A DNA stretch of 20,000 nt, from contig JYFJ02001397.1 in the NCBI GenBank assembly GCA_000934665.2, forward strand, positions 61,439 through 81,438, given 5' to 3'. The stretch's first letter is position 1. Every line of letters starts with the position of its first letter. The notes under the pieces were generated by a model. That model saw only the letters and a list, made by a program, of their open reading frames with translations. It was not told the DNA's origin and did not search any database. Origin of the DNA: Catajapyx aquilonaris (Eukaryota). The position numbers were made by a program, and so were the translations under genes. Of this stretch, positions 6,901 to 8,291 are shown in pieces.

Positions 6901-7101
6901 TTGAGGTTATATTGTACTAGCTAGGATGTCATTTGGTGATTAACATATTGTAACAACCTTGGTTTGATGAACTAGGCTTCATGATGGTTTGGTTGTTGAG
7001 TCCCATTGTGACTATCTGCAGGAATCCTACGCTACAAGGTGGACTTCCAGTCCCTGCAGGTGGACGAACCTCTTGAGGACGTCGACCTGGACGATTACTA
7101 A
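911..7101 (+). CDS. eRF1: Eukaryotic peptide chain release factor 1, isoform using terminal exon A; first coding exon lies upstream of the window
   Basis: Exons 911-1086, 1152-1430, 4062-4386, 4802-5018, 6358-6505, 7022-7101, all GT-AG with consistent phases. Translation contains [25 protein letters not shown] (YxCxxxF), [11 protein letters not shown] (GGQ, just after the 1431-4061 intron) and [15 protein letters not shown]. Confidence 0.97.
1977..2588 (-). mobile_element. Internally deleted hAT-superfamily DNA transposon in an eRF1 intron, retaining a transposase C-terminal dimerisation-domain fragment
   Basis: Imperfect 24-bp TIRs (left TGAAGAATGGATATTTAGGTTCTT; right reverse complement TAGAGAACGGATTTCTAGGTTATT); 8-bp TSD GTTATTAT/GGTATTAT (7/8); many subterminal (AA)TAGG repeats. 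Minus-strand ORF 2162-2401 has [29 protein letters not shown], resembling the hAT P-TS---ERSFS...R--L--EN motif. Confidence 0.8.
2635..2885 (+). mobile_element. Degenerate tRNA-derived SINE (boundaries approximate)
   Basis: A-box-like TGGCCATGTTGG and B-box-like GTTCAATCC in a tRNA-like head; the 3' part (ccctaaaggagcac...ctctctaacagggt) loosely resembles the 3' end of the SINE at 17098. Confidence 0.55.
5568..5775. mobile_element. Tc1/mariner-type MITE (208 bp)
   Basis: About 72-74-bp near-perfect TIRs (5568-5641 and 5704-5775) starting CAGGGTGTTTCA and ending TGAAACACCCTG; TA on both flanks. Confidence 0.88.
5926..6070. mobile_element. pogo/Tigger-like MITE (145 bp)
   Basis: Termini CAGTAAAACCT...AGGTTTTACTG, with further imperfect pairing to about 24 bp; TA on the left flank, right TA not preserved. 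Confidence 0.7.
7022..7101 (+). CDS. eRF1: eRF1 terminal coding exon A: (G)[25 protein letters not shown]
   Basis: Acceptor ctatctgcag ends at 7021; phase 1 matches the donor G|gttagt at 6505/6506; TAA at 7099-7101; AATAAA at 7613-7618. Confidence 0.92.
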
Positions 7102-8211
7102 CACAAAAACTGCATTCATTTATATACCATCCCCCACCCATTCACCAATACCCAAAATCCCAAAAAAGAAAGAAAGAAAAAAAAAACATGCCTAGTCCCT
7201 ATCCCTCTCCTAAGACCCCATTTTTTCACTCCTGGCCCAGCCAACTTTTTTAATCACTTTTTTTATTGACTTACTTTTTCGGGCATCACCAACTGTTGAT
7301 CACAGGTTGGGAAACATGTCAATTTAGCCTGCACTTTACATAGTAGATGTGGTTTTTCTTGACATTTCACTGCTTGGATTTTCAGTTTCATTTGATGTTG
7401 TGCTGCTTTTGTTGCAGGTTTCTGATTCCCTTATATTTGTTTATAGTGCTGAATGAAAAGAGCTTGAGTCCAACCAATATCATTTTTTGAAATACAAGGC
7501 AAAACTTAAATTGAATCCTGTCCCTTGATACCTTGTCTTTGACAGAATAAGCTTGACATAAAATGTTGCCCAAATTGTAGTGGGCTCAATAATTTTTTCA
7601 TTTACCACTCCAAATAAAGAAAAACTAACCGCTAAAAAAAGTAAGCGAATTAATTATGGGCTGATAGCTGTTGGTAAATTATTATTCAGTACAACGTAAT
7701 GATAGTCGTGAATAATTGTTCGTAATAATAACAGCTCTTTATGTAAAGGATACAGTGGAATGGAGGCATCATTTTGCGAGTGTAAAAAACATTCAATTGG
7801 ACCTTTTCAACTTTCCAATTATGAATTCTGCAAATGCGTTGAATATGTTATTATGATAGTTTATGTTTGACGACATTCTGATGTAATCATTAATTCACAA
7901 ATGGTGGTAGATTTTTACAAATTTCAGTGTATTGTTGCATGTGAAATTGCAAACTGACTGCACAACATTACCTTGCACATGGAAAGTTTGAAATTAGACA
8001 TGGGCACCTCATTAGGGTGTACAAGAGTGCATTTGGCAATTATTCTCATTGTCATCTACCTGCAGTATAATGCATGTCTAATTTTTACCATTTTTGTTGT
8101 ATGGAATGTTGGCTGACCTTGGCTTGGCCCAGAACTTTTTTGTATCCCCAGACCTGTTTTTGTATTATTGGGCACACTTTCATCTAATTCATGTATCTTC
8201 TTTCTCCCCAG

Positions 8212-8291
8212 GTCTCCTTCGCTATAAAGTTGATTTCCAGAGCTTGCAGTTTGATGAAGAAGAAGAAACTTATGACATAGAAGAGTACTAA
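8212..8291 (+). CDS. eRF1: eRF1 alternative terminal coding exon B: (G)[25 protein letters not shown]
   Basis: Strong acceptor tctaattcatgtatcttctttctccccag ends at 8211; same phase and same 80-nt length as exon A; 17/26 aa identical to A; AATAAA at 8962-8967 and nearby. Confidence 0.9.

Follow-up and report, generated by a model that had tools for sequence, protein, structure and literature searches.

The eRF1 Gene and Its Two Tail Segments

The 20,000-nucleotide stretch of Catajapyx aquilonaris DNA analysed here (contig JYFJ02001397.1; the whole stretch is referred to as the window) carries on its forward strand most of a gene that is identified from its sequence as eRF1, the eukaryotic class-I release factor, and the present analysis concerns the two alternative C-terminal tails that this gene can encode. 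Five constitutive exons, all with AG/GT borders, form one open frame of 407 residues to which a tail is added, and their translations contain the NIKS motif (ASNIKSRV) and the GGQ motif (GRGGQSAL). A Pfam scan, which covered domains 2 and 3, has returned eRF1_2 (E = 3.5e-34) and eRF1_3 (E = 7.5e-10). The core of the protein is 88-92% identical to insect eRF1, and the best protein matches to the last common exon are 84-88% identical; the first ~29 codons have not been found in the window. The gene is that of an arthropod, probably a hexapod: in a tree of the core without the tails, the window sequence falls among hexapod sequences with moderate support (85/82), on a long branch and with a bootstrap that has not settled.

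Transcript-like evidence has come from a sequencing run of the same organism by another study (run X5), of which six contigs, all at least 99% alike to the window, lie over 6300-9300. Together with a tblastn search with a beetle eRF1 (P0019), these contigs define the following features.

911..1086, + strand: eRF1 coding exon, NGTSMISL...KLYPR, with the NIKS motif; tblastn of P0019 at 97% identity, AG/GT borders
1152..1430, + strand: eRF1 coding exon; tblastn of P0019, AG/GT borders
4062..4386, + strand: eRF1 coding exon with the GGQ motif; tblastn of P0019, AG/GT borders, Pfam eRF1_2 (E = 3.5e-34)
4802..5018, + strand: eRF1 coding exon; tblastn of P0019, AG/GT borders, junction 5018>6358 in X5
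6358..6505, + strand: last common eRF1 coding exon, ending ...GFGGIG + G with the donor GAG|GTTAGT; borders, Pfam eRF1_3, X5 contig 6356-6506 at depth 30.4
7022..7305, + strand: cassette exon A, 284 nucleotides (nt); 341-nt X5 contig with joints 6505>7022 and 7305>8212, depth 14.8
7306..8211, + strand: intron between A and B, containing an AATAAA at 7613 of which no use is seen in the X5 contigs
8212..8799, + strand: shared terminal exon B; 57-nt X5 contig with joint 6505>8212, depth 15.9, and X5 contig 8210-8799, depth 103.2

Behind the donor at 6505 (GAG|GT), two homologous coding segments follow in tandem, 7022-7101 in exon A and 8212-8291 in exon B. Each is 80 nt long, stands behind an AG, continues in phase 1 and ends in TAA, and each yields a tail of 26 residues when read with the G from the upstream exon. 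In exon A, tail A is coded by 7022-7098 and closed by the TAA at 7099-7101, after which 204 nt of G-poor untranslated sequence lead to the donor CAG|GTTGGG at 7305. In exon B, tail B is coded by 8212-8288 and closed by the TAA at 8289-8291, the remainder being 3' untranslated region (3'UTR); its limit at 8799 is the end of an X5 contig and not a proven 3' end, the next AATAAA standing at 8962. The intron 7306..8211 is a 3'UTR intron in mRNA that includes A and part of the 6506-8211 intron in mRNA that skips it. AATAAA signals are found at 7613 after A (512 nt past its stop) and at 8962, 8983 and 9021 after B. An earlier interpretation made from the DNA letters of the window, below called the sequence-only reading, had proposed two 80-nt exons, each with its own AG in the phase of the 6505 donor, its own TAA and a downstream AATAAA, and these coordinates and signals have been confirmed. 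Its description of a poor polypyrimidine tract in front of A and a strong one in front of B also holds in the window, where the pyrimidine fraction at acceptor positions -32 to -4 is 0.59 for A (longest run 4) and 0.79 for B (longest run 13).

Over their coding segments, A and B are identical at 50 of 80 nt. They share a block of 11 residues in which seven codons differ, all synonymously and including a TCC/AGC exchange for serine, a count first given by the sequence-only reading and reproduced here. For the first 13 codons, the Nei-Gojobori proportions of synonymous (pS) and non-synonymous (pN) differences are 0.81 and 0.10, and the synonymous sites are therefore saturated. When the beetle protein P0019 was searched by tblastn against the whole window, tail matches were obtained at A and B only (E = 4e-6 and 0.003). 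The sequence comparison argues clearly for an old tandem duplication as the origin of the two coding segments, and for purifying selection on both copies.

Some further features of the two exons have been recorded. Exon B has a tandem stop, TAA TTC TAA, at 8289-8297, with the second in-frame TAA at 8295-8297, and in exon A the TAA is followed by a C and a long open stretch. The untranslated part of exon A (7102-7305) has 17 G among its 204 nt and is rich in C and A; As accumulate at 7158-7194, and runs of T stand immediately 5' of the 7305 donor. This part could hold candidate binding sites for splicing regulators.

Splicing of the Tail Exons

The X5 contigs contain three joints in this region, 6505>7022, 7305>8212 and 6505>8212, all of them GT..AG. 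None of the three occurs in the DNA run X1, one of four DNA runs that may be the source of the assembly, and X1 is hence not independent of it. A single 341-nt contig carries 6505>7022 and 7305>8212 together. Because this contig leaves A at 7305 and joins 8212, exon A is a cassette that is joined onward to exon B and not a terminal exon of its own, and the path through A and the path that skips it use one acceptor, 8212. Both junctions that the sequence-only reading had predicted, 6505>7022 and 6505>8212, are thus present in the contigs. Its central claim, that the gene has two mutually exclusive last exons, stands in part: two alternative tails are indeed used, but A has turned out to be a cassette 5' of the shared terminal exon B. 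Further upstream, an X5 contig has a loose end at 6356 whose sequence is the same as window 4987-5016, in confirmation of the junction 5018>6358.

With one depth figure per contig from a single run, the word depths in X5 are 14.8 for A included, 15.9 for A skipped and 30.4 for the contig of the upstream exon, so that the two paths sum to about the upstream value. A roughly even mixture would produce such a pattern, and from these figures we conclude only that neither form is rare in X5. The X5 contigs leave 6603-7006, 7310-7713, 8017-8117 and 8825-9127 uncovered; such a gap is read simply as a lack of contigs, other than where a contig bridges it. Two low-depth contigs lie at 7732-7964 and 9149-9300 (3.6 and 4), inside the A-B intron and past the 3'UTR, respectively, with no joint to the eRF1 exons; they could represent unspliced RNA, another transcript or DNA carry-over.

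Tandemly duplicated, mutually exclusive exon clusters occur in arthropod genes such as Dscam and 14-3-3 zeta. The window segments resemble such clusters: they are homologous and in tandem, share a phase and a coding length of 80 nt, and encode alternative versions of a protein segment. They differ in that A and B stand together in one X5 contig, where a mutually exclusive pair would place exactly one of its exons in each mRNA. Moreover, a search for inverted and direct repeats in 6300-8900 has revealed no docking/selector-type and no competing RNA pairing of a convincing kind; the best among the inverted repeats extend over 14-29 nt with 71-93% complementarity.

Tail Classes in Other eRF1 Proteins

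Two protein searches, one of them seeded with a tail that bears the element [DE]PLD[DE] and the sample therefore biased, have yielded 224 eRF1 proteins, of which 182 have a complete tail (116 distinct versions). Thirteen of the 182 complete tails follow the pattern ...SLQxDEPLDD[VIF]DLDDY and are referred to as the EPL class. Their sources are three butterflies (Parnassius, Euphydryas, Iphiclides), Anopheles maculatus, the midge Diamesa, the bee Ceratina (a protein named isoform X1) and the springtail Orchesella, with one unnamed protein in addition. Scored against these 13 tails, the variable half of tail A reaches 55-64, its self score being 70; tail A against tail B gives 28. Tail B is nearest to a more variable class, here called major, with a best score of 38 of 71. 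In Planococcus citri, two proteins named isoform X1 and isoform X2 do not differ in their cores, and each of the two kinds of tail is present in one of them. The EPL class is the more uniform of the two: mean identity between orders over the variable part is 0.85 for EPL vs 0.56 for major tails without a divergent mealybug, and 0.71 vs 0.49 when this mealybug is included. A protein search with the exon B translation (40 amino acids, padded by in-frame intron codons) has given no candidate and is considered unreliable, as other searches returned matching proteins.

Among the fetched tails, a sample biased by this seeding, the element [DE]PLD[DE] is restricted to pancrustacean eRF1. It is encoded by a separate exon in the insects and the springtail and lies within the single tail of Daphnia and of one of two ostracods, and it has been found in none of the fetched tick, spider, annelid, mollusc and nematode tails.

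Two species present special cases. The Orchesella cincta proteins P0123 and P0073 are encoded on separate contigs and have differing cores, which are sisters in the tree (branches 0.08 and 0.11); one ends in a tail of the EPL class, the other in one of the major class, and the pair may reflect a lineage-specific gene duplication or two haplotypes that were annotated differently. For Iphiclides podalirius, P0066 and P0114 have EPL-like tails that differ at five positions and are listed for the same contig, which may point to a further duplication of exon or gene.

Correspondence to Drosophila eRF1A and eRF1H

Differential splicing of the eRF1 C-terminus has been described for Drosophila by Karki et al. 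(Nucleic Acids Res, dated 2021; PMC9226519). In their account, eRF1H (437 amino acids) and eRF1A (438 amino acids) differ at residues 422-437, at the extreme C-terminus only; eRF1H is enriched in heads, where it makes up 33% of eRF1 mRNA, and almost absent from ovaries; it increases reporter readthrough in S2 cells, and a weaker binding of eRF3 has been suggested by the authors. A 2026 preprint regards eRF1H as so far the sole identified trans-factor for the high neuronal readthrough in Drosophila (PMC13278127). The sequence-only reading had pointed to Drosophila eRF1 variants linked to neuronal readthrough, and PMC9226519 shows that this work exists; exon A corresponds to the eRF1H tail.

This correspondence has been derived from the reverse primers in the supplement of PMC9226519. 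Translated, they read SLQADE and DVDLDD for eRF1-RH, and SMQLDEL and GFDLDDY for eRF1-RA, while tail A of the window contains SLQVDE...DVDLDDY. Since the eRF1-RH primers translate to SLQADE and DVDLDD, the eRF1H tail belongs to the EPL class and exon A is its counterpart. By sequence, exon A is thus matched with the eRF1H-specific tail and exon B with the eRF1A tail, the fly tails being known from their primer-covered parts only. The window and Drosophila have in common the gene, the switch point after GFGGIGG and the formation of two tails from one junction, and both forms of the window gene are present in RNA-derived contigs. They differ in species, with cores that are 88-92% identical, and in that tail B of the window ends in DIEEY and the fly tail in DLDDY. 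The passages of PMC9226519 consulted here speak only of differentially spliced C-termini; they mention neither a homology between the two exons, nor a cassette-with-stop layout, nor conservation beyond Drosophila. A search for literature on exon homology, a cassette-with-stop layout or conservation of eRF1 tails outside Drosophila, with most subscription journals outside its coverage, has found none.

Gene Arrangement in Metagenome Loci

A scan of metagenome contigs, seeded with the last common exon, has provided 80 loci out of 218 confirmed relatives; loci with a tail exon only lie outside this sample. Six of the 80 (L004-L009) show the order of the window, common exon, EPL exon, major exon. 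Loss or decay of exon B in relatives had been raised by the sequence-only reading; in these six loci a B-type exon is kept behind the A-type exon. One of them (L004) is ant-like, its major tail being identical to that of an ant protein, and five (L005-L009) are cockroach- or termite-like, with a major tail that differs from a cockroach protein's at a single residue. In L010, an EPL exon is present just before the end of the contig. The other loci have a tail after the common exon without an intron and are transcript-like or intronless (36/80), have no tail within the contig (23/80), or have an intron followed by a single tail exon (14/80), with tails that are annelid/mollusc-like, Daphnia-like or of an unplaced kind (L070). 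A second GFGGIG-like match in L070 was rejected as spurious.

The intron 5' of A measures 476 nt in the ant-like, 146 nt in the termite-like and 516 nt in the window gene, and the distance from the stop of A to the acceptor of B is 3349, 571 and 1110 nt, respectively. GATTAC TAA closes every EPL exon. When the window is compared with the ant-like and termite-like loci, exon A shows a pS of 0.56-0.75 and a pN of 0-0.034, and these values at orthologues are direct sequence evidence that the encoded tail A is under purifying selection. Past the EPL stop, CAG|GTAG occurs after 33 nt in the ant-like locus (L004:10702-10740) and after 37 nt in the termite-like locus (L005:10372-10415). These candidate donors hint that the EPL exon is internal also in the ant-like and termite-like loci, as a short cassette whose stop would lie less than 50 nt from the junction. 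L004 and L010 (99% alike) and L005 and L007 (98% alike) are too close to each other for a special conservation of the candidate donor to be judged.

A Cassette With a Stop Codon: Probable Mechanism and Alternatives

Very probably, the C-terminal 26 residues of the window eRF1 are set by inclusion or skipping of one cassette exon, with A as the eRF1H-type and B as the eRF1A-type member of an old duplication. With exon A skipped, the 6505 donor is joined to exon B, which gives a protein with the variable, acidic major tail. With exon A included, translation stops at its own TAA after the highly conserved tail A, and exon B serves as 3'UTR. The two tails exclude each other through the stop codon of A and not through exclusive splicing. 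By analogy with Drosophila, the inclusion of exon A may be regulated, perhaps neurally, and the A form may alter the work of eRF1 with eRF3 or another partner and so raise stop-codon readthrough. The sequence-only reading had suggested that the switch could tune termination, readthrough or nonsense-mediated mRNA decay (NMD) by tissue, and this too would rest on the Drosophila analogy. Tail A varies less than the main tail, which would fit a specific contact better than the mere loss of one to eRF3.

Several points weigh against this interpretation. None of the sequencing runs found for the organism is on record as RNA; X5 has no recorded library type, and its RNA nature is inferred from the spliced contigs alone; it is one run, of unrecorded tissue, whose contigs cannot reveal transcript ends or rare forms. 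Tail B resembles any other major tail only loosely, as its best score of 38 of 71 indicates. The weak acceptor of A is not a shared feature, the termite-like A acceptor having a good pyrimidine tract. Finally, none of the 36 loci with an intron-less tail carries an EPL tail, and expression of the A form outside the window therefore rests on database isoform names and on Drosophila.

An alternative that is rather unlikely, though not incompatible with the cassette model, is that of the sequence-only reading. It takes A and B as alternative last exons with separate poly(A) sites, that of A being used in some tissue, and governed by a coupled switch of splicing and polyadenylation. The AATAAA at 7613, 512 nt past the stop of A, is in keeping with such a switch, and the contigs of one run cannot prove that a poly(A) site is never used. 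However, the only contig that runs through A exits at the GT donor 7305 and joins B, no X5 contig covers 7310-7713, where the AATAAA of A lies, and the CAG|GTAG found 33 and 37 nt past the A stop in the ant-like and termite-like loci fits an internal exon.

A second alternative, in which the A-included mRNA is mainly regulatory, is considered very improbable. Such an mRNA would be sensitive to NMD, from which it would be shielded by readthrough as far as the following in-frame stop, in the manner of the autoregulatory 'RT-NMD 3'UTR' circuit of Arabidopsis eRF1-1, whose stop context is TAG CAATCA (Nyiko et al., Nucleic Acids Res 2017, PMC5397192). The window shares with the plant gene a 3'UTR intron more than 50 nt past the stop in an eRF1 mRNA and a next in-frame stop near that intron: the stop of A lies 204 nt before the exon junction, 55 open codons follow its TAA, with a C directly after the stop, and the next in-frame TGA (7267-7269) stands 36 nt before the junction. 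Against this, shuffling gives the open frame no significance (P = 0.064) in a stretch that is poor in G (17 G/204) and whose other two frames are open for 30 and 49 codons, nor is it conserved, being 3 codons long in the ant-like loci and 12 in the termite-like ones; as a signal, it has been rejected on both grounds. The window, with TAA + CACAAA vs the plant TAG + CAATCA, is without the plant-type readthrough context, and its stop-carrying exon, unlike that of the plant, also encodes a strongly conserved alternative tail. The strong constraint on tail A at the protein level and the depth of the A path in X5, equal to that of the skipping path, likewise speak against a mainly regulatory mRNA. 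NMD in Drosophila depends little on exon junctions, which counts against this alternative as well.

An assembly artefact, or a pseudo-exon in decay, at either of the two sites has next to no probability, as a general possibility for which one can say no more than that DNA run X1 may be the assembly source, whereas both exons are spliced in X5, from another study, recur with their order unchanged in two further lineages of insects and have kept their open frames through saturated synonymous change. The sequence-only reading had likewise favoured an old duplication with purifying selection on both copies over an artefact, and this judgement is borne out by the pS of 0.81 and pN of 0.10 between A and B, by the low pN of A at orthologues and by the splicing of both exons in X5.

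A broader extension of the cassette model can also be formulated. Abundant stop-codon readthrough has been reported in insects and Daphnia, and not in non-Pancrustacea (PMC5100048, an article that never uses the word eRF1). The spread of the [DE]PLD[DE] element parallels the clade with abundant readthrough, and therefore the origin of the tail could be one cause of it, although this is a correlation in a small sample. In this extension the eRF1H-type exon, far from being peculiar to flies, would be a cassette of ancient date found throughout the hexapods; its tail, steadier than the main one, would act as a specific binding motif and not just as a weaker contact to eRF3, and its origin would be one cause of the abundant pancrustacean readthrough. 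Taken as a whole, we hold the proposal to be unlikely.

Neighbouring Features

Downstream of eRF1, a tRNA-His gene with the anticodon GTG lies on the reverse strand at 9995-10066, ~1.2 kb past the point where X5 ceases to cover the eRF1 3'UTR (Rfam 65.7 bits, with ARAGORN in agreement). It is followed on the forward strand by Peritrophin-A chitin-binding domains (CBM_14) at 10781-11002 and 11533-11805 (E = 2e-9 and 2e-10), one per open stretch; the two stretches probably belong as exons to a single gene 3' of eRF1. An HtrA-like serine protease is represented by exons within 14741-16532 on the forward strand, with Trypsin_2 at 14741-15022 and 15471-15989 and PDZ at 16212-16532. The sole N of the window is located at about 18757.

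Implications for Translation in Insects

The switch as such is already published for Drosophila, and both kinds of tail are already present in database proteins of several insects, some of them with isoform names. Our literature searches have not met with a printed statement that the two exons are homologous, that they form a cassette-with-stop layout, or that the eRF1H exon is conserved across hexapods. The switch in the window is real and old, and it leaves the basic picture published for Drosophila unchanged. The layout itself illustrates a simple route by which duplicated terminal coding exons can give rise to exclusive proteins without exclusive splicing.

How often ribosomes pass stop codons is set by the efficiency of termination. 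The finding opens comparative questions: which lineages carry the eRF1H exon, whether its presence tracks abundant readthrough, and what the invariant DEPLDDVDLDDY tail binds. If the same exon pair, in the same order and under strong constraint, is found in distant insects, then eRF1H would be an old and selected part of insect translation and not a curiosity of annotation.

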